Virus record (IMG/VR): IMGVR_UViG_2565956726_000008
DNA from: a virus
Taxonomy: Duplodnaviria; Heunggongvirae; Uroviricota; Caudoviricetes
Length of the DNA: 64,000 bases
Strand: one strand, 5' to 3'
Under the pieces are notes generated by a model. The model saw nothing but the letters and a program-made list of their open reading frames with translations, did not search any database and was not told the origin of the DNA. The first letter of the stretch is position 1. Each line of letters begins with the position of its first letter. A program made the translations under genes and the position numbers. Of this stretch, positions 7,748 to 26,590 are shown piece by piece.

Positions 7748-8052
7748 CGCATTTTCTCCTATGGTTAGAGTGAACGCGCGGGCGGGCATCCCATTAGCAT
7801 TAGATAGCAGTGACTGACCGCTCAACAGATCCCGCCGTTGCGTGATATTTGTTTTTCGCTTCGCAGCGACACCGGATTTTTAAAGAGCATAAGGTAAGTG
7901 CCTTTTTGTGCCTTCAGTTATCTTTTTCCTTGCGTCTTTGCAAGTATGGCCTTACCTTGTCTGCAAGTTTACAAAATGGAATTTTAAGATCAAGGCTTAA
8001 AATACACGTTTTGTGACTTGCATCAAACTTTTTGAGGTTATAGGGTAGCGAC
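7748..8052. promoter_or_regulatory. Immunity region: divergent promoter/operator interval between Cro-like and CI genes
   Basis: 305-bp intergenic; palindromic half-sites CTTGC-N6-GCAAG (7929-7944), CTTG-N3-GCAAG (7956-7967), AAGG-N6-CCTT (7891-7904). Confidence 0.5.
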
Positions 8053-8700
8053 ATGAAAACAAAATGGTATGACTTAGCAAAGCAGCTCATGCGGGCGCAG
8101 GGCATGAGTCAGGATTCACTCGCAGATCTCATGGGGATAACTAAAGGCGGCCTGTCACACTGGCTGAACGGTCGCCGCGAGCCAAATCTTGAAGATATTG
8201 CGCGGATTATGCGGGCGCTTGGTCGTCGGCAGTTCACTGTTACACATGATGGTATGGTCATTGATGATTCTGTTTCTAATACACTTCAGGCCGCACCGCC
8301 GCGTGATTTAGGTAGTTACCCGGTTATTGACTGGAAGGACACAGTAAACAATATGGATGACACAAGGCGATCAGCATTACCACACGTTACGACTAGCGTT
8401 ATTTGTTCAGATGATAGTTACTGGCTGGTTGCCAAAGGTGAATCAATGAACGCGCCGCAGGGGTTGAGCATCCCGGCGGGGACGATGATACTTGTTGACC
8501 CGCACGCGCCAGCTATTGACGGCAAACTGGTTATAGCCCAGCTTGAGGAAGGGCAGATACCGACGTTTAAACAGTTGATTATTGATGGAGGTCAAAGGCT
8601 TTTACGTTCGCTCAATCCGCTGTATCCGCCAATCCCTATGAATCCAGAATCAAAAATTATAGGCGTGGTGGTTGATGCGAAGATCGTAAACCTGCCATAA
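8053..8700 (+). CDS. CI-type repressor (XRE HTH + S24 LexA-like peptidase)
   Basis: 215 aa; N-terminal HTH (MSQDSLADLMGITKGGLSHWLNG), C-terminal S24 fold with AKGESM Ser motif and downstream Lys. Confidence 0.9.
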   Translation: MKTKWYDLAKQLMRAQGMSQDSLADLMGITKGGLSHWLNGRREPNLEDIARIMRALGRRQFTVTHDGMVIDDSVSNTLQAAPPRDLGSYPVIDWKDTVNNMDDTRRSALPHVTTSVICSDDSYWLVAKGESMNAPQGLSIPAGTMILVDPHAPAIDGKLVIAQLEEGQIPTFKQLIIDGGQRLLRSLNPLYPPIPMNPESKIIGVVVDAKIVNLP

Positions 8701-9144: not shown

Positions 9145-9200
9145 AATTAACGAAGATGATTTTTTATTAAGTATCATCAAGGATATACGGAGATCAGATT

Positions 9201-9491
9201 ATGAGCGTTACAATCATGTATGGCAAATGTGACAGTAAACTGAATGCCAGGGAACGCAGAAAAATAAAAAGAGAAAACGAAAGAAAATCATCACCTGCAA
9301 TCAATAAAACAGACAATGTGGATAAAGCTATTCGATTTGCAAACGAGGAAAGATGCAAACCAAATAGCATTAAAGAACGTCGCAAAGGATCAGTAAAATG
9401 GTATACGGAAAATGAAAGCGGCAGCTACTACCACGCAACGCAACCACGCCATTTAGGGGAAAAACCCCTGGATAAAGTCCGCTACCATTAA
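9201..9491 (+). CDS. putative N-like antitermination protein
   Basis: 96 aa, basic; arginine-rich motif NARERRKIKRENERK near N-terminus; ggag RBS; follows nut-like site. Confidence 0.35.
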   Translation: MSVTIMYGKCDSKLNARERRKIKRENERKSSPAINKTDNVDKAIRFANEERCKPNSIKERRKGSVKWYTENESGSYYHATQPRHLGEKPLDKVRYH

Positions 9492-12268: not shown

Positions 12269-12730
12269 ATGAACGACATCAAAACAGCTTATTCACTCGG
12301 CAGCGACGGTATGTTAATCACTCGCTACACTGACGACGCGAGCTTTCACGAAGTGTTAACTAAGGACTATCACGAAGTATTAAAAGATATGAACGCAGGC
12401 GCATATGACGGTGATTTAAATCTGGCGCTACAGGTTGTTGATATTGTGATGGATGCGTCAATCCGCGATTACGTGTCTTTAAGCAGGGAAGAAAAAACAT
12501 CGGTAGCGCGTTATGTATTCTCTCTTACTTTTGTGAAGCGCATGGAGGAAGAATTCGGACGCGTACCAGTGCCGGAAGAGGTTGAACCGCTCGCGTTCGG
12601 AAGTGCTGTTATTTTTCCGTTGAACAAGGATCAGCTTGGTGGTGTTTCACTGCATTCTATGCGCGGCCTGATGAAAAATATCTTTGAGGTTAAGATGTTG
12701 CAGAAATTCATTGAGGAAGGCCACAAATAG
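12269..12730 (+). CDS. hypothetical protein (153 aa)
   Basis: ATG at 12269 with aagga RBS (longer ORF from 12239). Confidence 0.45.
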   Translation: MNDIKTAYSLGSDGMLITRYTDDASFHEVLTKDYHEVLKDMNAGAYDGDLNLALQVVDIVMDASIRDYVSLSREEKTSVARYVFSLTFVKRMEEEFGRVPVPEEVEPLAFGSAVIFPLNKDQLGGVSLHSMRGLMKNIFEVKMLQKFIEEGHK

Positions 12731-12988
12731 GAAGAAGTAAAAGCGCTCATGCCATTGTTTTACGGTGAAATGGTTGGCAATGATATGCGTGCAAATGATT
12801 TCGGCGTACAGGCGGCTATCGCTGTGCTTAATGAGGCACGGGAAAACGCACAGCCAATGCCTGAACAGGGGAAACGTGTACTGCATTAACCGAGTAATTC
12901 CGATCACATAAATATACATTTTGTATTGTGAACGCATATCCGTTTTGTAAGCCGAAATCAAAAGGTTTACGGTGCGGAGGAAGCAAAA

Positions 12989-13207
12989 ATGGAACGCGAA
13001 TTGATGCTTTATTGCGTAGAAGGTGGCGTAGGTCACGATGCCTACGTCGCCGGGAAAGACTATCCAGCCGATGAAGTGCTTTCTAATATGCACTTCAGAG
13101 AAAATGAAAGCCAGGTGTCTGTGTGGAAACGGTGTATTGATGGTATTGAGGTTGTAAGTATCGAACGGTATTTAGGCACGTTTGATTACGGTGTTATTGA
13201 GGCTTAA
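12989..13207 (+). CDS. hypothetical protein (72 aa)
   Basis: ORF with ggagg RBS. Confidence 0.4.
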   Translation: MERELMLYCVEGGVGHDAYVAGKDYPADEVLSNMHFRENESQVSVWKRCIDGIEVVSIERYLGTFDYGVIEA

Positions 13208-16278: not shown

Positions 16279-16357
16279 TTTACAAAATGGCATCATTGCG
16301 TGATGCGGATCACATAATGGCGCTTTTTGCCTTGTTTGGGGGTATCCATTTTGTATA
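16279..16357. repeat. Intergenic motif pair TTTACAAAATGG / CCATTTTGTATA flanking GTGA-N6-TCACA palindrome
   Basis: tttacaaaatggcat (16279-16293), cgtgatgcggatcaca (16299-16314), atccattttgtatac (16343-16357). Confidence 0.7.
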
Positions 16358-16435
16358 CTTCAAGCAAACAAAATGCTCTTTAAAAATCCGGCAGCGCTGA
16401 AATGCGTAGAAATCACCTGAAAAGGAGAGAGCATT

Positions 16436-16612
16436 ATGTCTTTTGATGATTACCAATGGCATGACGACTATGAACGAGAAAGCGTCATGCGTGCAATGTG
16501 CAATGTATGCAGCACGAAAAAAGGAGAATGTAACGAGTACAACGAATGTGTAGATCACTCGCTAAGGGCCGGACACGCCGAAAGGCTGAACGAAACAGAG
16601 AATCAAAAATAA
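16436..16612 (+). CDS. small Cys-rich protein (58 aa)
   Basis: ATG with aaaggagaga RBS; eight Cys (CNVC...ECNEYNEC). Confidence 0.35.
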   Translation: MSFDDYQWHDDYERESVMRAMCNVCSTKKGECNEYNECVDHSLRAGHAERLNETENQK

Positions 16613-16626
16613 TTGGGGTGGTTTTT

Positions 16627-17232
16627 ATGCAAAACCCTAAGAAACCAATAAGACGCCGTTGCAAATGCTGCGGCGTTTTTTTTGAGCCTAAATATCACAA
16701 TCAAACGTGGTGCAGCGACGAATGCCTGGAAGAACTGAAATTTGACCAGTTATGCCGCGACCGTGAGAAGGCTATGAAGGCTATGGAACGGAAGAAACGC
16801 CGTGATAGCCAGCGGGAAGAACGCAACCGGAAGCGGAAGCAGTTAAATCCGCGTAGCTATTGGTTAAAGCAGGCACAAGCGGTATTTAATGCCTATATCC
16901 GCGAACGTGACGCGCGGTTGCCGTGCATATCCTGCGGGACTTACTACGGTGAGCAATGCGGATACGATGCGGGGCATTACAGGACGGTCGCCGCCGCCGG
17001 ACACCTTCGCTTCAATGAAGATAACGTCCATAAACAATGTAGGCACTGCAATCAGACATTAGACGGAAACATACAAGCCTATCGCCCAGCACTGATTCGA
17101 AAAATTGGCCTCGCCAGGGTGGAAGCGCTGGAGAACAACAATGATACGCATAAATGGACGATCGCAGAATGTAAGGAGCTAATAAACATCTATCAGGCAA
17201 AATTGGACGCCTTAAGGAGAAAGGCAGCATGA
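16627..17232 (+). CDS. ninG: NinG/Rap-family recombination protein
   Basis: 201 aa from ATG 16627; close by-eye match to lambda NinG (W.SDEC, PRSYW.KQAQ.AVNA.IRERD, LPCISCGT, DAGHYRT.AAA..LRFNE.N.HKQC..CN). Confidence 0.85.
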   Translation: MQNPKKPIRRRCKCCGVFFEPKYHNQTWCSDECLEELKFDQLCRDREKAMKAMERKKRRDSQREERNRKRKQLNPRSYWLKQAQAVFNAYIRERDARLPCISCGTYYGEQCGYDAGHYRTVAAAGHLRFNEDNVHKQCRHCNQTLDGNIQAYRPALIRKIGLARVEALENNNDTHKWTIAECKELINIYQAKLDALRRKAA

Positions 17233-17657
17233 ACGAATATACATTTAGCCTACCTTACCCGCCATCGAATAACCGCTATTACCGACATTCGCGCGGTTTT
17301 CACTATATAAGCAAAGTGGGGAAGGAATATCGGGAACAAGTAAGAGACATCATCGAGCTATTAAATTTAAACATTAACCTACCTTGCCGACTGGCAATCG
17401 CCATCTATGCCGCGCCGCCGGATAACCGGATCAGAGATCTGGATAATATCCCTAAATGCCTTTTTGATAGCCTTACCTATGCCGGATTTTGGAAGGATGA
17501 CGGGCAAATTGACTCAATAAAAATTGTCCGCTGCCGGAAGGTAAAAGGCGGACGCTTGTTTATTAAGATCCGCGAACGCGGCGACCTACTACCGGATATT
17601 GACGAATACGCGACTAATATGTGGGGTGACAATGGAGACAATAAACATTGTTGTTAA
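17229..17657 (+). CDS. rusA: RusA-family Holliday junction resolvase
   Basis: 142 aa; PPSNNRYYRHSRG, DLDNIPKCLFDSLTYAGFWKDDGQI typical of RusA. Confidence 0.85.
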   Translation: MNEYTFSLPYPPSNNRYYRHSRGFHYISKVGKEYREQVRDIIELLNLNINLPCRLAIAIYAAPPDNRIRDLDNIPKCLFDSLTYAGFWKDDGQIDSIKIVRCRKVKGGRLFIKIRERGDLLPDIDEYATNMWGDNGDNKHCC

Positions 17658-17869: not shown

Positions 17870-18048
17870 AAAACGAAATTAAAGATCTGCAAATAGATAT
17901 TCAGCGCGATGAGCATGATTTAGCTACAGTCCGACAAATTCAGGCTTTTCATATGCGCGAATTGCTTGCATTGAAAGAGCTTGAGAGGAAGTTAGTCCAG
18001 TCTATTTCTGATCGTAAACGCCTTATTGCTCGTTACGGGGGCAAATAA
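17866..18048 (+). CDS. hypothetical coiled-coil protein (60 aa)
   Basis: ORF coupled to neighbours. Confidence 0.4.
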   Translation: MKNEIKDLQIDIQRDEHDLATVRQIQAFHMRELLALKELERKLVQSISDRKRLIARYGGK

Positions 18049-18770
18049 TGAATCTGGAATCAATTCTTAAATTCCACTTCCCAAAATCACCGCGTTTGTT
18101 AGATGAAAGCCGGGGCACGTCCCCAGACTCGCTTAATACTACTGATGCACTAACCGCAGCAGGTATGGCGCAATCGCGCGTAGAGCTTGGTTATAGCGCT
18201 TTTTTAGGGAAGATGGAACTATCGCAAGCCGAAAAACACAGGGCCGTAGTTTTGCTTACAGAGCGTTTAAGAGCTATGGCAAAAGATTACGAATACGTCA
18301 TGGAGCTGGACGAGGACAAACGCAATGATCTTATTATTCTTGTTGCCGTTTTCGCGTTTCGGGATTACTGCCAGAGTGCCGCGACAGAAAAAACTTGTAT
18401 GGATTGCGGCGGATATAAATTTACGTTTGACGACTACGGAGAAAAACACCTTTGCAAAAAATGCAAGGGGCATGGAAAAGTTCGCAATCATTGTAAACGA
18501 TGCAAGGGGCGCGGCGAGATACCGGATAAAGCAGCCAGTGAAGCAGCGGAAATGCCAGTGTTCAAAACGTGCCAGCATTGCGGCGGGCGCGGGTACTCGC
18601 GTTTCCCTGTAGATCTTGTCCGGCGTGCGGTTAATCAGCTTGTATTTCCGGTAAGCCGATCAACATGGTGGAAAAAATACCGGGTTTTCTATGAAGACGC
18701 CATCGCTGAATTGTTCAAAGAAGAGGCGCGGGCTGATAACGAAATTAAACGAGTGACGCGAGGTGAATGA
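18048..18770 (+). CDS. Q-like late antiterminator candidate with DnaJ-type zinc finger
   Basis: 240 aa; four C-x2-C-x-G-x-G repeats (CMDCGGYKF, CKKCKGHGK, CKRCKGRGE, CQHCGGRGY); sits after ninG-rusA as Q does in lambdoid phages. Confidence 0.45.
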   Translation: MNLESILKFHFPKSPRLLDESRGTSPDSLNTTDALTAAGMAQSRVELGYSAFLGKMELSQAEKHRAVVLLTERLRAMAKDYEYVMELDEDKRNDLIILVAVFAFRDYCQSAATEKTCMDCGGYKFTFDDYGEKHLCKKCKGHGKVRNHCKRCKGRGEIPDKAASEAAEMPVFKTCQHCGGRGYSRFPVDLVRRAVNQLVFPVSRSTWWKKYRVFYEDAIAELFKEEARADNEIKRVTRGE

Positions 18771-19228
18771 TGGATAAACTGGAAATAAACGATCAGTTTG
18801 CTGTTATCTTGTTCGAGGATAAAACAGGCGGTGCATGGTGTAAGAAAGTCACTGGTGCTGAAGCGCGTTTAATATTGGGAATGGCAAGCGCATTAAACGA
18901 TGGCGAATTGCCCGCCGTACCTATTGAGCCTGTTCATATTTATGGGCGGGTAACGACAATGAAGCCTAAATTAAAAGAACATCTTTTTGCAAAACTTGTT
19001 AATGACCTGACGTTATCAGCGCGGTTGTGTGGTGATACACAACAATTACTGGCGTGGATAGCAAGGGATTTGAAAAAATATATTGAGCCTGGCGGGCCTG
19101 GTGACGAAATGACGGTTGATAAGGCCATCGAGCGCCGGACGGCTGAATGGTCAGTAAGTAATACCGGATTAACCGGATACATCGAAGGCTATAACGACTG
19201 TTTACAGGATCATAGCGATGGCAAATAA
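18767..19228 (+). CDS. hypothetical protein (153 aa)
   Basis: ORF overlapping upstream stop. Confidence 0.45.
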   Translation: MMDKLEINDQFAVILFEDKTGGAWCKKVTGAEARLILGMASALNDGELPAVPIEPVHIYGRVTTMKPKLKEHLFAKLVNDLTLSARLCGDTQQLLAWIARDLKKYIEPGGPGDEMTVDKAIERRTAEWSVSNTGLTGYIEGYNDCLQDHSDGK

Positions 19229-19517
19229 ACACTTACATTTGAATTTAAAAGGTGAATACTTCCACGCCATCCGGGCGGGAAAGAAGGTGGAAGAATACCG
19301 GCTTTACAATGAATACTGGCGTAAACGCCTGGAGGGGCGGGAGTACACAAGATTAATCATTAAATGGGGTTATCCATCGGATGATGAGAAAGACCGGATT
19401 ATCGTATTGCCTTACATGGGGTACGAAATCAAGTTGATTCAACATCCACTATTCGGCCCTGATCCGGTGAAGGTATTCGCAATAAAGTGTGATATTTACT
19501 GGCAATACAGATTTTAA
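19218..19517 (+). CDS. hypothetical protein, possibly ASCH/PUA-like (99 aa)
   Basis: ORF; weak by-eye resemblance only. Confidence 0.35.
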   Translation: MANKHLHLNLKGEYFHAIRAGKKVEEYRLYNEYWRKRLEGREYTRLIIKWGYPSDDEKDRIIVLPYMGYEIKLIQHPLFGPDPVKVFAIKCDIYWQYRF

Positions 19518-19530
19518 GGTTTGTTGAGCA

Positions 19531-19746
19531 ATGAAAAAAGCTGGCCTGTCAATTAGCCGCGTATTGTGCGGTGATGAAAACGAGATCCGCATAGAAATTA
19601 AATTTAGCACTGGTAAAGAGATAATTCTTTACACGACACCTGAAAACCTGACGCTGGCGCTTACTGGTAAATCTGAAACGCCGTGCGACGTCCGGTTGCG
19701 CAATATTGAGATCAAGGAAATAGGAAGGGTGAAAAATGAAAAGTAA
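19531..19746 (+). CDS. hypothetical protein (71 aa)
   Basis: ORF in dense array. Confidence 0.35.
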   Translation: MKKAGLSISRVLCGDENEIRIEIKFSTGKEIILYTTPENLTLALTGKSETPCDVRLRNIEIKEIGRVKNEK

Positions 19747-19951
19747 CCGTAAACGCCTGGTAAGGGCGTATGACAAAGCGTTAAAGGCTTTTGATGATCT
19801 GCGACACAATAAGCGCCAGCGCCGCAAATGGGCGCGTATGCTTGTTTATAAGTGGCATTATTTTTATGCTTTTATGGAAAGTGCGCCGCTATTAACACAA
19901 GAACAAGCCGACGAAGTAGCTAACGATAACGTTTATTATATGACGTGGTGA
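19736..19951 (+). CDS. hypothetical protein (71 aa)
   Basis: ORF in dense array. Confidence 0.35.
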   Translation: MKSNRKRLVRAYDKALKAFDDLRHNKRQRRKWARMLVYKWHYFYAFMESAPLLTQEQADEVANDNVYYMTW

Positions 19952-19955
19952 TAAT

Positions 19956-20321
19956 ATGCAAATAATCATTGATTACCTTTGCCACGCTGCAAATACGCTT
20001 TTCGGTTTTTATCAGCAACCATTCCTGAAAGAATGGGACGAAATGCTTAATGACATCCTCGACAAAGGGTTAATAATGGAATTCGGGGAGCTAACAATCA
20101 AATTTAATTACGAAGGCAAAGAATATGACATATGGGTAGGAAACAGATGGTATGCATACGGGCATATTTATTCAATTGGCGGTAAATACATTAAACGAAG
20201 TCAGGAATTTAGACCGCGCTTCCGCACAATGCGACGACTGCATGACCTGCATATGAAGATATTTGGAGATCAGGAGGCACGGGAATTATTCAAAATTTAC
20301 GGGGGTAAATCATGGAGCTAA
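19956..20321 (+). CDS. hypothetical protein (121 aa)
   Basis: ORF in dense array. Confidence 0.4.
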   Translation: MQIIIDYLCHAANTLFGFYQQPFLKEWDEMLNDILDKGLIMEFGELTIKFNYEGKEYDIWVGNRWYAYGHIYSIGGKYIKRSQEFRPRFRTMRRLHDLHMKIFGDQEARELFKIYGGKSWS

Positions 20322-20542
20322 AAATCTGGCAGGCTATCGACGTAGTTGATAATGAATTAACAATGTTTGCCACTGACGGAAAGCGCGTGGTTATCGCTAC
20401 ATGGACGCATAACCATGATGATATTGTTTTTCGTCGCAAGGCTGCGGAGTGGCTTTTCTCTGACAACGGCTACACGATGAATATCATGCAGCTTTCCAGA
20501 ATGAAGGATGAAAAGCTGGTTGATAGTTACACAACTGCATAG
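20312..20542 (+). CDS. hypothetical small protein (76 aa)
   Basis: ORF in dense array. Confidence 0.35.
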   Translation: MELKIWQAIDVVDNELTMFATDGKRVVIATWTHNHDDIVFRRKAAEWLFSDNGYTMNIMQLSRMKDEKLVDSYTTA

Positions 20543-20552
20543 TGGGGCAAAT

Positions 20553-20786
20553 ATGTGTATCTATGAACACAAGCGGGATAAAACCCGCTTTTTTGTTCGT
20601 GCTGGCGTGGCTTACCAGTATCACGACTGCGGATATATCGAGGCGCTTGCTTACGATCTGGACTTCGAACAAGAAAAAGAATGGTTCGATTTCAAAATTT
20701 ACCGGAAGCGTAAACCGACGCGCGACGAGCGACACGCTATCCGGGACTTTTTAATCAGCATAGACCGCTGGGAGACAGAGGAATGA
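20553..20786 (+). CDS. hypothetical protein (77 aa)
   Basis: ATG at 20553 after upstream stop. Confidence 0.35.
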   Translation: MCIYEHKRDKTRFFVRAGVAYQYHDCGYIEALAYDLDFEQEKEWFDFKIYRKRKPTRDERHAIRDFLISIDRWETEE

Positions 20787-21070
20787 GAGCGAAGAAAACA
20801 GCAGATCAGAAAGCGTTAGTTATCACTACAACTGATGTGTCGTTATTCACGAAGGGTGAAGAAATAGATCTTAAATTACTTTTCGGCATGTTTGAGCCAC
20901 ACGAAAAGCCGTGGTTCGTGCATGAAGACAAACAGGGAAATATGCGCGTAGTAGTGCCGGACAAAAACAGCGACATATTTTTTGCTATTCCAGACCCGTT
21001 ACATGACGGTGAATTGCTGGCGGTATTGTTGATCGCTGATGCTGTTACTTATAAAGGGAAAGAAATATGA
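20783..21070 (+). CDS. hypothetical protein (95 aa)
   Basis: ORF in dense array. Confidence 0.4.
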   Translation: MRAKKTADQKALVITTTDVSLFTKGEEIDLKLLFGMFEPHEKPWFVHEDKQGNMRVVVPDKNSDIFFAIPDPLHDGELLAVLLIADAVTYKGKEI

Positions 21071-21294
21071 AAGTTAAATTCTTGCACAATCACGGCTACC
21101 CATCATTAAAACGCGTGGTAGGGGAAACGGTAGACGTTGTTCATTCTGATGATGTGACCTGCGTCATTTTGGGTAAAGACCTTATCGCTCACGGTGCTGA
21201 TGATTACTACATTAACCCGGCGTGGTCATATACGTTTAGCCTGGGCGACTTCGTAGGCGATAAGGGGCGCGGCTTGCAAGTAGTCGAGGGTTAA
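21067..21294 (+). CDS. hypothetical small protein (75 aa)
   Basis: ORF in dense array. Confidence 0.35.
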   Translation: MKVKFLHNHGYPSLKRVVGETVDVVHSDDVTCVILGKDLIAHGADDYYINPAWSYTFSLGDFVGDKGRGLQVVEG

Positions 21295-21298
21295 TATC

Positions 21299-21514
21299 AT
21301 GGACGTTTACGAAGATTTATACCTTCAAACAAATACCAGCACTTTTTATTTTTTGAAAAACGGCGTCGTATATCGCAGCGATGACGGGGTAATAATGAAA
21401 GAGTGGCTATTTAAACGCAAAGACCTACTTGATGACCTGGTTTTTGCCGGGATATTCCGTAAACGTCCGGCTAACCTGGAAGAAGAAATGCTGATCGACG
21501 AGGTATTAAAATGA
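21299..21514 (+). CDS. hypothetical small protein (71 aa)
   Basis: ORF in dense array. Confidence 0.35.
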   Translation: MDVYEDLYLQTNTSTFYFLKNGVVYRSDDGVIMKEWLFKRKDLLDDLVFAGIFRKRPANLEEEMLIDEVLK

Positions 21515-21762
21515 AAATCAAGGTAAGTTATTTCAGGGCGAAAGATAAGGCCACTGGACGGATGATGGCTATTCTGGTTAACGAAGCGAATTATATGTTC
21601 TTCCTTCAACCGTGGTGCATTGCCGATCTTAATGACGATTATCGCCGCCACGCTGCGCGTAGTGCTGTAGGCATGAAAGGCTGGCAGCCGCGCGACATGG
21701 AAAACTATAGCGAGTGGAAATTGGTGGTAAAATACACGGTCGATTATAAAGGGGTTTTCTGA
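21511..21762 (+). CDS. hypothetical protein (83 aa)
   Basis: ORF in dense array. Confidence 0.4.
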   Translation: MKIKVSYFRAKDKATGRMMAILVNEANYMFFLQPWCIADLNDDYRRHAARSAVGMKGWQPRDMENYSEWKLVVKYTVDYKGVF

Positions 21763-21986
21763 TGTTTGTAAAATGTATAAAGTCTCGTTTCCCTAATCTT
21801 TTTGTGGTTGATGAGATTTACGACATAGAAACGCTAATAAGCAGAACTAACGATATTCAGTACATTTATGATGAAGATGGCGATCCGTGGTTTTTTTATA
21901 ACGATCTCAATGGTAGCGGATTCGTTGATGGCGTTGGCGGTAATGGTGTGCCAGTTGCGCTATTTATAAATGCAAATAAGGAATGA
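21762..21986 (+). CDS. small protein, paralog family (G-x-I-Y ... DD-x-G-x-W)
   Basis: 74 aa; EIYDIE...YIYDEDGDPWFFY shared pattern. Confidence 0.45.
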   Translation: MFVKCIKSRFPNLFVVDEIYDIETLISRTNDIQYIYDEDGDPWFFYNDLNGSGFVDGVGGNGVPVALFINANKE

Positions 21987-22198
21987 ATATCATGTATGTT
22001 AGATGCACTGAATCAAAATCATCATGCTTTGAGGTTGGCGGAATATATACCGTAGCTCACCTGACTGGTGATGAACTTAACACCCAATACATTAAAGACG
22101 ACCACGGAGACGCGTGGCGCTATTGGGATTGTTACGCACGGGGACACGTTACCAGTCATTTCGGTATGGAAGCGATCGTGCGTTTTGTTAAATGGTAA
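21983..22198 (+). CDS. small protein, paralog family
   Basis: 71 aa; GGIYTVAHL...YIKDDHGDAWRYW. Confidence 0.45.
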   Translation: MNIMYVRCTESKSSCFEVGGIYTVAHLTGDELNTQYIKDDHGDAWRYWDCYARGHVTSHFGMEAIVRFVKW

Positions 22199-22207
22199 GG
22201 GGTAAGC

Positions 22208-22465
22208 ATGAAGCATTTATATTTTGAGGTATTGCAGACGCGAGACCGCAATATTTTTGAAGAAGGGAAGATCTATTGCGGCGTTCAACTCCACGGCGCA
22301 CCGGGCGGTGATGGTGCAATGGCGATAACTGGCGATGATGATAAGGTTTATTTCGCTTATGTTAGCCATATCAATAACGCCGCTGGTCTGTATATTTATC
22401 GCATAGTGCATGATTTCCGTGAGATCGCGGAGTTTTGCGCCCGCGAAGGCAGTAAACCGGAATAA
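22208..22465 (+). CDS. small protein, paralog family
   Basis: 85 aa; GKIYCGVQL...ITGDDDKVYFAY. Confidence 0.45.
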   Translation: MKHLYFEVLQTRDRNIFEEGKIYCGVQLHGAPGGDGAMAITGDDDKVYFAYVSHINNAAGLYIYRIVHDFREIAEFCAREGSKPE

Positions 22466-22475
22466 GTGAGGGGTT

Positions 22476-22715
22476 ATGAACCGGAACCATAGATACCAGT
22501 GCACATACTCACTATGCAGCGCGTTTTTTAAGAATGGCAAGATCTACGAAGTCGGCGCGGCATTGGTTGATGCAAAGGATCAGGAATATATTCACGCCAT
22601 TACTGACGACCAGGGCCGGTTATGGCGCTTTTATAAAATGGGGTACGGTACGGCGCTTGTTTATGCGCGTAATAGTAGTGGTGCTTTTGCTGCATTTTCA
22701 TATGTCGGGGCGTAA
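22476..22715 (+). CDS. small protein, paralog family
   Basis: 79 aa; GKIYEVGAAL...ITDDQGRLWRFY. Confidence 0.45.
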   Translation: MNRNHRYQCTYSLCSAFFKNGKIYEVGAALVDAKDQEYIHAITDDQGRLWRFYKMGYGTALVYARNSSGAFAAFSYVGA

Positions 22716-22717
22716 AA

Positions 22718-22933
22718 ATGATTTTAACGTGTCACGGATCTGATCTTGATTGTTTCGAAGACGGTTGTCAGTACGAAGCGGAAAAGCCAGGCGGATTACC
22801 GAAAAAACCGTTTTTAGTCGTTACAGACACTTACGGTCACTTATGGTATGCAGCGCCCAGCAAGGCGCGTGGCTGGTGGCTGATTCAGAATGAAGATCGC
22901 GAGGTTGTAGTGGCCCTCAGGCAGGACGAATAA
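22718..22933 (+). CDS. small protein, paralog family (divergent)
   Basis: 71 aa; FLVVTDTYGHLWYA. Confidence 0.4.
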   Translation: MILTCHGSDLDCFEDGCQYEAEKPGGLPKKPFLVVTDTYGHLWYAAPSKARGWWLIQNEDREVVVALRQDE

Positions 22934-22956
22934 AAAGCGTGATCTACCCCGCAAAG

Positions 22957-22999
22957 TTTACAAAATGGCATTGTTTCAGCAGTGCCATTTTGTTATAAA
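22957..22999. repeat. Intergenic palindrome TTTACAAAATGGCA-N12-TGCCATTTTGTTATAAA
   Basis: Near-perfect inverted repeat in the 100-bp gap between small-ORF arrays. Confidence 0.7.
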
Positions 23000-23034
23000 G
23001 AAGCTGAAGAGAGAACGATGCGGAGGGTAGAAAA

Positions 23035-23313
23035 ATGAAACGCTGGATTAACAAAGAAGTCGAATCTCGCTTAAACGCATTTTGGGAGATGGTGGAGAAA
23101 GAAGACCCAGCACACGCTGCAAGCCCTTACCTGAACAACATCGAATATCACTACATTGCAGCAAACAACGCGGAGTTCGAAGAAGAAGGTGGAGCCGACA
23201 AGTTCGCACAAAGCAACGCATTCAACAACGCAAACGAAATGATGATGGCAGTCATCGAACAGGCAGAGGAAGACTACGAATGCAAATCACTTGAATTTGC
23301 ACGCATGGCATAA
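23035..23313 (+). CDS. hypothetical acidic protein (92 aa)
   Basis: ORF with ggag RBS downstream of palindrome. Confidence 0.4.
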   Translation: MKRWINKEVESRLNAFWEMVEKEDPAHAASPYLNNIEYHYIAANNAEFEEEGGADKFAQSNAFNNANEMMMAVIEQAEEDYECKSLEFARMA

Positions 23314-23322
23314 GGGGGAACC

Positions 23323-23463
23323 ATGAACGCTAACGCTAAATATCCGGCCTGGGTTTTCGAACTATACGCCCGCTACTTTGAAGTATTGGCACCAGGTGAA
23401 GAAGCATTAAGCATTGACGAATACGCGGAGTGCTTAGGATTTAGAGGAGGAGAAGAAGAATAA
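23323..23463 (+). CDS. small hypothetical protein (46 aa)
   Basis: ATG with aaggggga RBS. Confidence 0.3.
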   Translation: MNANAKYPAWVFELYARYFEVLAPGEEALSIDEYAECLGFRGGEEE

Positions 23464-23502
23464 ACACGGGGCAGAATGGCCCCATCAAACGGAGTAGAAA
23501 TT

Positions 23503-23757
23503 ATGGTTGTGATCAGACTATGGCGCGGAGTTAGTAGGCTTGATGGCACATACAGCCGTGTAATTGAGGTTGTTAACAATAGTAGGTTTTATGAACTGGA
23601 ATACAGCGAAAAAAGGGAGAATGAATATTTGAGCGAATCGACCCCTATGTGGTGCAAAGTGGCTGGCCTTTCTTCACTTATGCGTTGCGGGTTTTATACA
23701 GATTATAACACGCTAACAGATGCCGAACTGGTGGCAACTCTTTACGGAGGAGAATAA
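23503..23757 (+). CDS. hypothetical protein (84 aa)
   Basis: ATG at 23503 with ggag RBS. Confidence 0.4.
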   Translation: MVVIRLWRGVSRLDGTYSRVIEVVNNSRFYELEYSEKRENEYLSESTPMWCKVAGLSSLMRCGFYTDYNTLTDAELVATLYGGE

Positions 23758-23760
23758 ACA

Positions 23761-24084
23761 ATGACTAAATTTATCAGTGTTAAAGTTTTCCGTGGCACTA
23801 TTCCAGAAAGTGAAAAATACGGCGAATTTAGTGGAATGCCTGGCGCATGTTTCCGTGTAGCTACAGAAGACGATAACCGTGTTAAATGTTTCCACATATC
23901 AGAACCGCCTTTCGATCCAGAACATCTTAAACATCCAGGTAAAATTAAAACGCTTATTTTCGCTTTTCTGACGATTAATTCTTACCCTGATCTTGAGGTT
24001 GATTTAGTCGGCGCGGAACTGGTCGCAGAATACAAAATAACCCCGGCAGAAAGCGGAGATTCTGAAATTGAGCGCATCAAATAA
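23761..24084 (+). CDS. hypothetical protein (107 aa)
   Basis: ORF in dense array. Confidence 0.4.
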   Translation: MTKFISVKVFRGTIPESEKYGEFSGMPGACFRVATEDDNRVKCFHISEPPFDPEHLKHPGKIKTLIFAFLTINSYPDLEVDLVGAELVAEYKITPAESGDSEIERIK

Positions 24085-24319
24085 ACCTTACAAAATCCGG
24101 TGTAAAGTGGAATATCCTGGCTTTACGACTGGATGCGAATACCTGGGCCATATGGGGTATGGCCCGTTCGGCGAGTTAGGAATGAATACGATTGACGACG
24201 ACGGCGACAACAGGACGCTTGATCTTGATAGCGATGATTTCGAATACATCCCGCCAGTCACTTACCGCGTCGTCGATGATTTCCTGGCTGAACATGAAGA
24301 CGAGGATGATGATGATTGA
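24068..24319 (+). CDS. hypothetical acidic protein (83 aa)
   Basis: ORF; acidic C-terminus EDEDDDD. Confidence 0.4.
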   Translation: MSASNKPYKIRCKVEYPGFTTGCEYLGHMGYGPFGELGMNTIDDDGDNRTLDLDSDDFEYIPPVTYRVVDDFLAEHEDEDDDD

Positions 24320-24512
24320 ATGCCTTATCGCTGTGATTGTTTTGCTTTATATCGCTGGCGCGATCCTGATGTCATGTTTTATTAAGTTTAGCGGCGCTGA
24401 ACCTGGTGGCCTTGAGATTCCTTTTTGGCCTGTGACTGTGTTTATCGCTTTCTTCGATGCAACGCTAGTGCAGATTAAGCGAGCCATTAAGGAGCGTAAA
24501 AATGGGAAATAG
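24306..24512 (+). CDS. small membrane protein (about 68 aa, 2 TM)
   Basis: Hydrophobic translation IECLIAVIVLLYIAGAILMSCFI ... WPVTVFIAFF. Confidence 0.4.
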   Translation: MMMIECLIAVIVLLYIAGAILMSCFIKFSGAEPGGLEIPFWPVTVFIAFFDATLVQIKRAIKERKNGK

Positions 24513-24726
24513 CGACCATCAATATGACGGCGTTTATCAGTCATTGGTGTCACGCGCTTATTATCGCCTTGAAGGTGAACACGTAATGATGCGATCACGC
24601 CAGTTTGAACTGTGGCATGAAACGGTTTTACCTGTGACAGCGAAAGAAGTTATCACGATGTTTAATCACGGACATTGGAGCAAGATTGGCGATATTAAGT
24701 TCAGGATGTTTAAAGAGGGCGATTAA
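24502..24726 (+). CDS. small protein, paralog family (divergent)
   Basis: 74 aa. Confidence 0.35.
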   Translation: MGNSDHQYDGVYQSLVSRAYYRLEGEHVMMRSRQFELWHETVLPVTAKEVITMFNHGHWSKIGDIKFRMFKEGD

Positions 24727-24909
24727 ATGATTGAAGATGGTATATACGCCGTGAACCTCATTGATGAAATGTTTTACCGCGTGGAGGGTAATGATATTCG
24801 TATCAGTATCGATGGTGGCGAGTGGAAAGAGCCATTCATGGATATGACGCGGGAAATAATTGAAATCATGCTTTATAACGGCGACGTGGTGAAGGTTAGC
24901 GACCTGTGA
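24727..24909 (+). CDS. small protein, paralog family
   Basis: 60 aa; DGIYAVNLIDEMFYRVEGNDIRI. Confidence 0.4.
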   Translation: MIEDGIYAVNLIDEMFYRVEGNDIRISIDGGEWKEPFMDMTREIIEIMLYNGDVVKVSDL

Positions 24910-25082
24910 ACGAGATCGAAGACGGCATCTATTTGCATAAGGTATTTAACATCGTCTATTTACTTAAAGGTAATAAGGTGATGATAAGACCTGATGACGA
25001 TCCACATTGGGAATCAAGCGGCATGGATCGCGAACACATGCAAACATTGCTTGATAATGGCCTGATATACAGAAAGCAGTAA
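24906..25082 (+). CDS. small protein, paralog family (GTG start)
   Basis: 58 aa; EDGIYLHKVF ... PDDDPHWE. Confidence 0.35.
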   Translation: MNEIEDGIYLHKVFNIVYLLKGNKVMIRPDDDPHWESSGMDREHMQTLLDNGLIYRKQ

Positions 25083-25104
25083 AGCCGTATTTGTTGGGGG
25101 TAAT

Positions 25105-25332
25105 ATGGAAGAAAGGGTTTTGCTGTCATCAATATGGCATCGGTTCGGAAGTGAAAAAGGTTACTCACCTGCTTGCTGGCTGGATAGTAAAAGCGGAAAG
25201 GAGTATCAAAACGAGTGCGAATTTAGAAGGGAGTGGCGAGGCGGTAAGGAAGTGCAAGGATATTTTGCACCAAAACACGTTGCCGTCAAATACAAAGAAT
25301 GGCTTGTTCGTTTGCTTGGACCTTATCGTTAA
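25105..25332 (+). CDS. hypothetical protein (75 aa)
   Basis: ORF with RBS; last gene before lysis cassette. Confidence 0.4.
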   Translation: MEERVLLSSIWHRFGSEKGYSPACWLDSKSGKEYQNECEFRREWRGGKEVQGYFAPKHVAVKYKEWLVRLLGPYR

Positions 25333-25340
25333 CGCCGTAT

Positions 25341-25369
25341 TTGTAGAGCGCAAACAAACAGATTAAAAT
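25341..25369 (+). promoter_or_regulatory. candidate sigma70-type promoter upstream of lysis cassette
   Basis: TTGTAG-17 nt-TAAAAT; followed within about 30 nt by a terminator-like hairpin. Confidence 0.3.
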
Positions 25370-25397
25370 ATTTCCTAACAATGCGAAATTGTAATTA

Positions 25398-25419
25398 CCC
25401 GGCCCCGCGCCGGGTTTTT
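25398..25419 (+). terminator. hairpin plus T-run immediately upstream of holin gene
   Basis: cccggc-cccgc-gccggg followed by ttttt. Confidence 0.45.
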
Positions 25420-25439
25420 GCTTTGTTGGAGGAAAATCT

Positions 25440-25640
25440 ATGTTCGACAGAATACGGGAGGCGTGTGCGTATGTGACTGGGGCCGTAACTGCTTTTTTCG
25501 GCGCGATAACCATCAATGACATCGCTGTTTTCGTTGGTATCTTATCAACCGTAGGCACATTTGCCGTTAATTATTACTTCAAATCACAGGAGAACAAGCG
25601 GGCGCAAGAGGAACACGACGCGCGAATGGGGAACAAGTAA
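25440..25640 (+). CDS. holin, pinholin (S21)-like
   Basis: 66 aa; two hydrophobic segments then basic tail; NYYFK resembles S21 pinholin; directly precedes a SAR endolysin. Confidence 0.65.
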   Translation: MFDRIREACAYVTGAVTAFFGAITINDIAVFVGILSTVGTFAVNYYFKSQENKRAQEEHDARMGNK

Positions 25641-26132
25641 ATGATTAGCCAATCGCTAAAGAATAAGATTATTGCTGCGGCGGCTGGTGGGGCTATCGCT
25701 ATTGCGGCGGTGATGATAAAAGATCTTGAGGGTGTGGAGTACAAGCCATACAGAGATGTCATCGGTGTTTACACGATATGTTATGGACACGTCGGAAAAG
25801 ACATCATGCTGGGTAAGACTTACACGCAATCAGAATGCGATGCTTTGTTGAACAAAGATCTTCATAAAACCGCAAAAGCGATTGACCCCTACATTAAAGT
25901 CGAAATATCAGATTTTACCCGCGCTGCGCTTTATTCATTCGCCTATAACGTAGGCGCTACCAACTTCAAAACATCAACCTTATTGAAGCTACTCAATGAC
26001 GGCAAGAAATCAGAAGCGTGCGCACAGCTTAAACGCTGGATTTATGCTGGCGGTAAGCAGTGGCAAGGGTTAATAAACCGCCGTGATGTTGAATATGCCG
26101 TTTGCGAATGGGGTGAAACATGGAAAAGGTGA
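25641..26132 (+). CDS. SAR endolysin (GH24 lysozyme)
   Basis: 163 aa; N-terminal signal-anchor-release segment [17 protein letters not shown], catalytic E...D...T region [21 protein letters not shown]. Confidence 0.85.
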
Positions 26133-26590
26133 AGACGTTAATTATCGCCGCCATTGTTTGTATTGTTGTTGGGCTTGTTGCCGCGCTTAGTCATTGCCAG
26201 TCAGTGATAAACACAATGCAAAGCGAGCTAACGACCACGCAAGGCGCACTAAAAACAGCGAGTAACACTATTCAGCAGATGAAGGAGCGAAACGCCGAAC
26301 TGTCAAAACTTGATAAGAGGTATCACGATGAAATTAAAGCTATCAGATCTGACATTGCCGATCTGCGCACTGGTATTGATAGCGGCGCTATCCGGTTGCA
26401 CGTCAACGCCGAACCAGTGCGATTGCTCGACAATACCGGAACCGCCAGCCGCATTGATGGAGCCACCTGTAGACTCACTCCAGACGCTGAATCGGCTTAT
26501 CTATCCCTCAGAGAACAATTAAAAGAAAAAGACGCGAAGATCACCGGATTGCAGGACTACATCAATACGCAGTGCTTACGCAAAGAATAA
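26120..26590 (+). CDS. Rz-type i-spanin
   Basis: 156 aa; N-terminal TM helix, coiled-coil periplasmic domain; contains embedded out-of-frame lipoprotein ORF. Confidence 0.7.
26328..26522 (+). CDS. Rz1-type o-spanin (lipoprotein) embedded in Rz
   Basis: 64 aa in +1 frame; own RBS agaggt; lipobox LSGC; Pro-rich mature region. Confidence 0.6.
   Translation: MKLKLSDLTLPICALVLIAALSGCTSTPNQCDCSTIPEPPAALMEPPVDSLQTLNRLIYPSENN

Follow-up and report, generated by a model that had tools for sequence, protein, structure and literature searches.

Where does a phage late antiterminator act when its gene does not adjoin the lysis genes? The question is raised by a 64,000-nucleotide stretch of DNA from a virus of the class Caudoviricetes (IMG/VR record IMGVR_UViG_2565956726_000008), the whole of which is called the window here. 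In it, a 240-codon open reading frame (ORF) downstream of ninG and rusA has the position of a Q gene, and the holin gene begins with its ATG at 25440, 6,670 nt beyond the stop codon of this ORF. The initial annotation of the locus had noted the distance of 6.6 kb, which the count bears out, and had offered two explanations: either the late control region is split by a block of small ORFs, or the protein is not a late antiterminator. We find that the ORF encodes a homolog of lambda Q, and we consider it quite probable that this protein is the functional Q-lambda-type antiterminator of a temperate coliphage of the mEpimmI group, with its cis target at 25341-25419 directly before the holin gene and the small-ORF block between the two.

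A Q-lambda homolog downstream of ninG and rusA

The gene in question (18048-18770, plus strand) starts with ATG and encodes 240 amino acids (aa). It is preceded, in this order, by ninG (16546-17232; PF05766, 1e-66), rusA (17229-17657; PF05866) and two small ORFs; ORF calling and Pfam matches thus agree with the gene order read initially. Its start codon overlaps the stop codon of the ORF before it (TAATG), and at the other end its own stop codon overlaps the ATG of the next (ATGA), so that the gene lies inside a translationally chained operon without intergenic space.

Homology searches assign the protein to one family. It matches Pfam PF03589 (Q-lambda) with 102.5 bits at a cut-off of 26.7 (E 1.3e-29) and phrog_127, described as ‘anti-termination protein Q-like’, from end to end (4.3e-78). 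Q-lambda entries were the only significant sequence matches in PDB (7UBM, E 7.4e-39). With phmmer, residues 1-122 and 148-238 align to residues 1-123 and 117-207 of lambda Q (7ubm_Q), and a global alignment of the two proteins is colinear throughout, with 35% identity overall and a single insert of 31 aa at positions 117-147. Structure searches with an AlphaFold model gave significant matches to Q-lambda structures only, and the model displays the fold expected for this family, a helical helix-turn-helix (HTH) body with a zinc-ribbon arm. No similarity to the Q21 and Q82 antiterminator families was detected, PF03589 and PF00684 being the only families reported at E <= 0.01. Judged by sequence and predicted fold, the ORF belongs to the Q-lambda family over its full length, and the idea that it might not be a late antiterminator is unsupported. 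As a member of this family, the protein would be expected to bind a Q-binding element (QBE) as well as to make RNA polymerase resistant to terminators.

Conservation is uneven along the protein. Codons 1-60 (18048-18227, plus strand) are homologous to the N-terminal segment of Q-lambda, which refolds into a ‘torus/nozzle’ within the RNA-exit channel (PMC9388147); 34 of these 60 residues are identical to lambda Q, i.e., 57% compared to 30-36% in the remainder (body, arm and HTH). The residues equivalent to G39, L58 and T206 of lambda Q, whose role is described in PMC9388147, are kept as well. Divergence has affected the helices that correspond to the HTH, and a different QBE is therefore expected for the window Q. 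The best-kept part being the N-terminus that contacts RNA polymerase, the pattern fits a Q allele with another DNA site but an unchanged host polymerase as its partner.

The window belongs to a coliphage of the mEpimmI group, as kin of mEp021 and mEp013. These phages have been described as Nus-dependent ‘non-lambdoid’ coliphages (PMC11893012). The stretch from 17 to 27 kb matches mEp010, mEp013, mEp021, mEp044, mEp515, mEp554 and MagusPhagus piecewise with 86-88% identity. The Q protein itself is 95% identical to Q of mEp013 and 83% identical to Q of MagusPhagus; its protein cluster at 95% identity comprises 981 members named ‘antitermination protein’, and gp37 of mEp021 already carries the annotation ‘putative late gene regulator Q’.

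Cysteine motifs of the Q arm

The initial annotation described four consecutive CxxCxGxG repeats of the DnaJ type in this protein. Three of the motifs are indeed perfect (aa136 CKKCKGHG, aa149 CKRCKGRG and aa175 CQHCGGRG), but the first one (aa117 CMDCGGYK) is only a CxxCxG motif, in which the final G is replaced by K; four perfect motifs exist in some close homologs, e.g., P0006. The motifs are not unusual for a Q protein, however, since lambda Q and P22 gp23 themselves bear two of them (CRDCHGTG and CGRCKGVG) and Qs with four are known from canonical lambdoid phages. What appeared as ‘DnaJ-type’ repeats is the native motif of the Q arm, doubled in the window Q.

Motifs 3 and 4 (18492-18593, plus strand) are equivalent to the zinc-ribbon arm of lambda Q according to residue mapping and invariant columns: the zinc ligands C118, C121, C144 and C147 of lambda Q correspond to C149, C152, C175 and C178 of the window Q and are invariant in 32 homologs. 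In lambda, the arm is a ‘type I shuffled zinc ribbon’ which makes contact with both the QBE and sigma region 4 (PMC9388147). The additional CxxC motifs 1 and 2 are found one at each end of the span 18396-18476 (plus strand), which falls within the 31-aa insert seen in the lambda Q alignment; lambda Q is without motif 2 and its surrounding sequence. Across the same 32 homologs, the CxxC pairs of motifs 1 and 2 are invariant or almost so, and the model places a beta-strand beside each of the two knuckles. Motifs 1 and 2 probably make up another zinc ribbon at the arm's base, which would bind a second zinc. The four motifs may be paired in tandem (1+2, 3+4) or nested as in DnaJ (1+4, 2+3).

This long form of Q is widespread. 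An insert of 25-80 aa is present in all 32 aligned homologs (from E. coli, Citrobacter, Pantoea, Pectobacterium, Serratia and Xenorhabdus), CxxC motifs 1 and 2 bound it in nearly all of them, and roughly half of the phage records sampled for spread contain a long-form Q. HK225 Q (271 aa) and ST104 gp23 (257 aa) have four motifs, and their genes occupy the canonical position.

The reading of the protein as a DnaJ-like zinc-finger chaperone, or as some other non-transcriptional zinc protein that happens to lie in the nin region, is extremely improbable. It can draw on a Pfam match to DnaJ_CXXCXGXG (26.0 bits, E 1e-5), on weak NCBIfam DnaJ matches and on the likeness to the cysteine-rich domain of DnaJ (PF00684; PDB 1EXK), which also contains a run of four CxxCxGxG-type zinc knuckles. 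The PF00684 match, however, stays under the gathering score (26.0 vs 32.7 bits), the J domain and the C-terminal (substrate-binding) domains of DnaJ are absent from the 240-aa protein, and the protein is colinear over its full length with lambda Q, which bears the same type of motif. A structural relationship to DnaJ was likewise rejected, as the 1EXK domain matched at E 0.33 only and neither structure search gave a DnaJ fold. The homology results effectively refute a DnaJ chaperone. An apparent anomaly of the annotation is thus cleared up: the Q-lambda arm natively bears CxxCxGxG knuckles, and forms with four of them are frequent.

A conserved PR'-like unit in front of the holin gene

Directly upstream of the holin gene, the plus strand carries a compact series of elements. 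It begins with a weak -35-like hexamer, TTGTAG (25341-25346), which is not conserved: many relatives have TTGTGG and approximately 12 loci have ATCGCG or TCGCGC instead. After 17 nt follows the -10 hexamer TAAAAT (25364-25369), preceded by an invariant AAACAAAC..GAT. This stretch as a whole (25352-25369) is at least 90% conserved or invariant in 51 related loci (6 from GenBank and 45 from IMG/VR), which are the relatives referred to in this comparison, and its AAACAAA..GAT sequence is a candidate QBE. Seven nt downstream of TAAAAT lies AACAAT (25377-25382), invariant in the 51 loci; it resembles a -10 element and is a putative sigma-dependent pause element (SDPE), located at approximately +1 to +6 of the predicted late transcript. 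A tR'-like intrinsic terminator (25397-25419), recognized from its fold and from annotation in relatives, begins 15 nt later, with the stem ACCCGGC/GCCGGGT followed by TTTTT. The stem (25397-25415) consists of seven pairs, six of them GC, the T-run extends to 25419, and the structure has a folding energy of -18.2 kcal/mol (z -2.9). The ribosome-binding site of the holin gene, GGAGG, is found at 25428-25432. The unit occurs once in the window. An Rfam scan from 16 to 28 kb returned only a chance-level match to sroH (E 0.65).

Parts of this unit are already known from relatives. The hairpin is annotated as TERM_5 in mEp021 and as an ARNold terminator in mEp010, mEp013 and mEp044. A terminator ‘t5’ is listed as experimentally shown in the work on Gp17 (PMC11893012) and may be TERM_5. 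The phage group, the annotation of its Q and the terminator have been made public before; a late promoter, a pause element and a Q site of the mEpimmI phages are not described in PMC11893012 and, to our knowledge, neither the assignment of PR' and pause element nor the group-wide separation of Q from its target has been spelled out in print.

The weight of the unit comes from its conservation and its lambda-like layout, not from a match to the promoter consensus. The order of Q, overlapping small ORFs, a spacer of about 108 nt and the holin gene is the same in 51 of 51 loci. The distance between the Q stop codon and the conserved core of the spacer varies from 1.9 to 6.7 kb and is never zero. 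The consensus of the spacer reads AAACAAA[C/T][A/G]GATTAAAATA[T/C]T..CTAACAATGCGAAA.TGTAA..ACCCGGC....GCCGGGTTTTTGCTTTGTTGGAGG, and the mean majority frequency over its 83-nt core is 0.96, compared to 0.96-0.97 for codon positions 1 and 2 and 0.89 for position 3 of the holin gene. The core is near-invariant despite at least five different upstream genes and, in two loci, another holin gene. Two types of Q allele occur among the loci, one of 240 aa (94-99% identical to the window Q) and one of 242 aa (83-88%). A linkage between the class of Q allele and the class of -35 sequence was considered and rejected, because either -35 class is found together with either Q type; the sequence upstream of AAACAAA is therefore not specific to Q.

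Comparison with characterized late promoters supports the assignment. In a six-way alignment of the window, L010 (a more distant relative), ST104, HK225, P22 and lambda, the T, A and T columns of the -10 element and the A, A and T columns of the pause element are invariant and in register. In lambda the arrangement is TAAATT-6-AACGAT, and the first A of AACGAT is where the transcript begins; P22 has a short leader with tR' at +31 to +59. In the distant relatives L010-L012, whose Q is 48% identical, Q is followed by 3 kb of small ORFs, TATAAT-6-AATAAT, a terminator with a 10-bp stem and the holin gene; the whole architecture is kept although the sequence has diverged. In L061 (Q 45% identical), at least 2.7 kb of small ORFs follow Q. 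A Citrobacter prophage with a long-form Q of 40% identity has the canonical adjacent arrangement. By our rough estimate, TAnnnT-7-AACnAT would occur by chance within 40 nt upstream of one given terminator with a probability of about 1e-3, a value resting on 2.8 expected matches per 128 kb on both strands.

A Q-dependent cassette has been defined as a Q gene, an adjoining unit of PR', SDPE and terminator, and the late genes (PMC9388147). The locus has a predicted -10 element with a pause-like element in the initial transcribed region, as in a lambda-type cassette, and a terminator between the promoter-like sequence and the late genes, which begin with lysis and continue with morphogenesis genes. 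The transcription unit does not directly follow Q, however, either here (6.6 kb) or in the 51 relatives (1.9-6.7 kb).

Several proposals of the initial annotation can be judged on this basis. The likeness of the unit to PR'/tR' is supported by the in-register alignment with lambda, P22 and HK225. Both TTGTAG-17-TAAAAT and the hairpin are present, but TTGTAG does not hold as a conserved -35 element, since relatives have TTGTGG or none. The explanation of a late control region split by the small-ORF block is supported by the near-invariant PR'-like unit beyond the block in 51 relatives. The split itself is real, but it is not due to a one-off insertion: with 1.9-6.7 kb, it is fixed across the mEpimmI group and more distant relatives.

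Downstream of the unit, the plus strand encodes a class II holin (25440-25640; PF16080), an endolysin (25641-26132; PF00959), Rz (26120-26590; PF03245) and, embedded in Rz, Rz1 (26310-26522); PHROG lysis families support the cassette. In relatives, terminase and portal genes come after the lysis genes. The lysis cassette (25440-26590, plus strand) presumably comprises the first genes of the late operon.

A look-alike site directly after Q

A second candidate for a late promoter is found where lambda has it. TAAACT-7-AACGAT at 18775-18793, 5 nt past the Q stop codon, contains the exact lambda pause hexamer, and GTGACG, 16 nt upstream of TAAACT, is a possible -35 element. If PR' and the Q-binding site were located directly after Q or in its 3' end, as in lambda and the Stx (Shiga toxin) phages, the block would be late and the holin-proximal hairpin a mere internal terminator ignored by Q-modified polymerase. 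A virion-associated product from the block would agree with this: ORF 21299-21514 is 93% identical to mEp021_41, a ‘virion structural protein’ according to virion mass spectrometry. We nevertheless regard a PR' at this position as very unlikely. Chance alone should produce the degenerate -10/pause pattern 2.8 times in the window, the site lies within the coding sequence of the next ORF (MDKLEINDQ), TAAACT reads TAAGCT in four relatives, and no terminator follows. Moreover, mEp021, mEp044 and L010, with which the window shares Q and the holin-proximal unit, have other sequence in place of the whole segment after Q. The site is coding and not conserved, and we treat it as a coincidence.

Proposed late control and its uncertainties

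We infer the following course of events for a Q acting at the holin-proximal unit. RNA polymerase carrying Gp17, loaded at nutR2 upstream of ninG, would transcribe ninG, rusA, Q and the whole block. At the holin-proximal unit, a transcript would start near A25377, placing AACAAT at about +1 to +6 and the terminator at about +21 to +43. In the absence of Q, polymerase should make an RNA of approximately 43 nt and stop at the terminator. Q, with its arm enlarged by the 31-aa insert and two extra CxxC knuckles, would load at the paused complex and thereby allow read-through into the holin, endolysin, Rz, terminase and head genes. No special mechanism for action at a distance is needed, because Q is a diffusible protein.

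A number of results weigh against this scheme. In a simple scan for consensus promoters the TTGTAG site fails, with three of six positions matching, and the region holds no excess of promoter-like sites (14 found vs 22 expected from shuffled sequences). Approximately 12 of the 51 relatives are without a recognizable -35 element. As the -35 is 3/6 here and missing in these relatives, the strength of the unit as an autonomous promoter is uncertain. Compared to lambda, the window has a weak -35, and a TTGACT-like element is missing from the interval that separates the -10 from the pause element. Among the relatives the hairpin varies in loop bases only and its stem never changes, so that covariation lends it no support. 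N-like antitermination set up upstream might carry polymerase through the terminator unaided, and the virion link of ORF 21299-21514 would fit late expression of the block better.

Some of these points lead to an explanation in which the Q homolog is true but the unit is not an autonomous promoter, so that the late genes would be reached by read-through from the early operon. Either Gp17-modified polymerase would ignore the terminator, or Q would load on sigma-containing elongation complexes which, coming from upstream, pause at both -10-like elements. This is compatible with the weak -35, which roughly one in four relatives lack, with nutR2 being located upstream of both ninG-Q and the block and no strong barrier intervening, and with the experimentally shown terminator ‘t5’, which may be this hairpin. 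On the other hand, TAAAAT is invariant, including the A at its second and the T at its sixth position, and matches known PR' promoters in register, and Q as a conserved core gene would be pointless if N-like read-through sufficed. We consider late expression by such read-through unlikely. A related variant concerns the relatives without a -35, and perhaps all: there the unit would be non-autonomous, with Q either replacing, by means of its enlarged two-zinc arm, the contact between -35 and sigma region 4, thus acting as activator and antiterminator, or loading on sigma70 complexes that come from the early operon. We give this variant only a slim chance; if true, either way of loading Q would be one not described for lambda, 21 or 82.

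The small-ORF block and the early operon

Between Q and the holin-proximal unit, 26 small ORFs (ORFans) of 46-153 aa are arranged head-to-tail on the plus strand (18767-25332; from the ORF list). No Pfam family was found for any of the 20 block ORFs tested (20/20). The block is hypervariable; its length ranges from 1.9 to 6.7 kb and its content differs among the 51 relatives. Two weak sets of paralogs are discernible, 21762/21983/22476 and 24502/24727/24906.

Early-type control elements are located upstream of Q. A homolog of the N-like early antiterminator Gp17 of mEp021 (PMC11893012) is encoded at 9201-9488 (plus strand; 94% identity by tblastn). The region at 16279-16435 (plus strand), upstream of ninG-rusA-Q, is 93% identical to the spacer after the methyltransferase gene of mEp021, where nutR2 has been placed (PMC11893012), and contains a boxA-like TGCTCTTTAAAAA. 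A partial copy of the nutR2 region (nutL) lies on the minus strand at 7864-7890, and the repressor gene is at 8104-8697; the N-like early antitermination system known from mEp021 is thus represented in the window. The block is probably the distal, hypervariable part of an early operon under N-like antitermination.

The block's end at the holin-proximal unit is marked by an insertion of 250 bp (25080-25344, plus strand), which has a 15-bp direct repeat, TAA[A/C]GCCGTATTTGT, at its bounds and contains ORF 25105-25332. The insertion adjoins the -35 edge and is absent in the six GenBank relatives; the same ORF is found in about 12 IMG/VR loci. Since a repeat-flanked insertion abuts the -35 edge, the left boundary of the module appears to be a recombination joint. 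The ORF encodes 75 aa with a weak KilA-N-like match (E 0.0035).

Further observations concern single members of the block. ORF 18767-19228 (153 aa), the first after Q, matches phrog_35000 over aa 2-62 and phrog_29262 over aa 65-153 and may be a gene fusion; the first post-Q ORF is shorter in relatives, with 204 nt in mEp013, mEp010, mEp554 and MagusPhagus. In L061, the first gene after Q (9188-9415) encodes a Lar restriction alleviation protein, an early-type anti-restriction gene, and the post-Q block of L010 includes another accessory gene of early type, for a HAD/PNKP-like phosphatase (12533-13072). Two further plus-strand hairpins resembling terminators were noticed, AAGCGGG...CCCGCTT with a T-run at 20571-20590 inside ORF 20508-20786, and AAATGGCA...TGCCATTT at 22934-23034, where the block has its one real intergenic gap. 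In mEp554, mEp044 and mEp010, the small-ORF blocks contain annotated ARNold terminators.

Comparison with known systems

The textbook order of Q followed by PR' is broken in mEpimmI, a prevalent group of human-gut coliphages. A block of 2-7 kb of ORFans upstream of the late promoter implies early, Q-independent expression; its placement would predict the timing of genes of unknown function and suggests candidates for anti-defense or host takeover. In addition, the compact natural module of PR', pause element and terminator (about 80 nt, with a predicted leader of about 43 nt), combined with a Q allele of different specificity, could aid comparative studies of Q loading.

The closest systems are the other mEpimmI phages and MagusPhagus, which share the order of Q, small-ORF block, terminator and holin with the window and have Q proteins of 83-95% identity. 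The window differs from them in degree: its block of 6.6 kb is among the largest, compared to 1.9 kb in mEp021, and in contrast to the GenBank members of the group it has the additional 250-bp gene at the -35 edge.

Lambda Q and P22 gp23 (PF03589; PDB 4MO1, 7UBJ-7UBN) have the fold predicted for the window Q, with a four-helix HTH body and a zinc-ribbon arm; from lambda Q, the window protein differs in its diverged HTH-equivalent helices. As in the window, lambda Q sits after ninG and rusA in the early operon, and a -10 element is followed after 6-7 nt by an AAnnAT pause element and then by a terminator. In contrast, lambda Q is only about 80 bp from its PR', compared to 6.6 kb from the presumed PR' in the window, and the leader of lambda comprises 194 nt instead of about 43 nt. 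The long-form Qs of HK225 and ST104 share with the window Q the number (four) and order of the CxxC motifs and the variable insert that separates motif 1 from motif 2, which is longer in these two proteins (38-52 aa). The pause region of ST104, CCTAACAGTAGAAAT, resembles that of the window, CCTAACAATGCGAAAT. Unlike in the window, Q is directly followed in both phages by PR', an AACGAT-type pause element and a terminator, and then by the lysis genes.

Phages encoding Shiga toxin, of the 933W type, are organized as Q-PR'-tR'-tRNAs-stx-...-S. As in the window, accessory genes amounting to several kb separate Q from the lysis genes, but PR'/tR' of the Stx phages lies beside Q, and the accessory genes downstream of PR' are late and Q-dependent. 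In the window, by contrast, the accessory genes are located upstream of the PR'-like unit and are presumably early and Q-independent.

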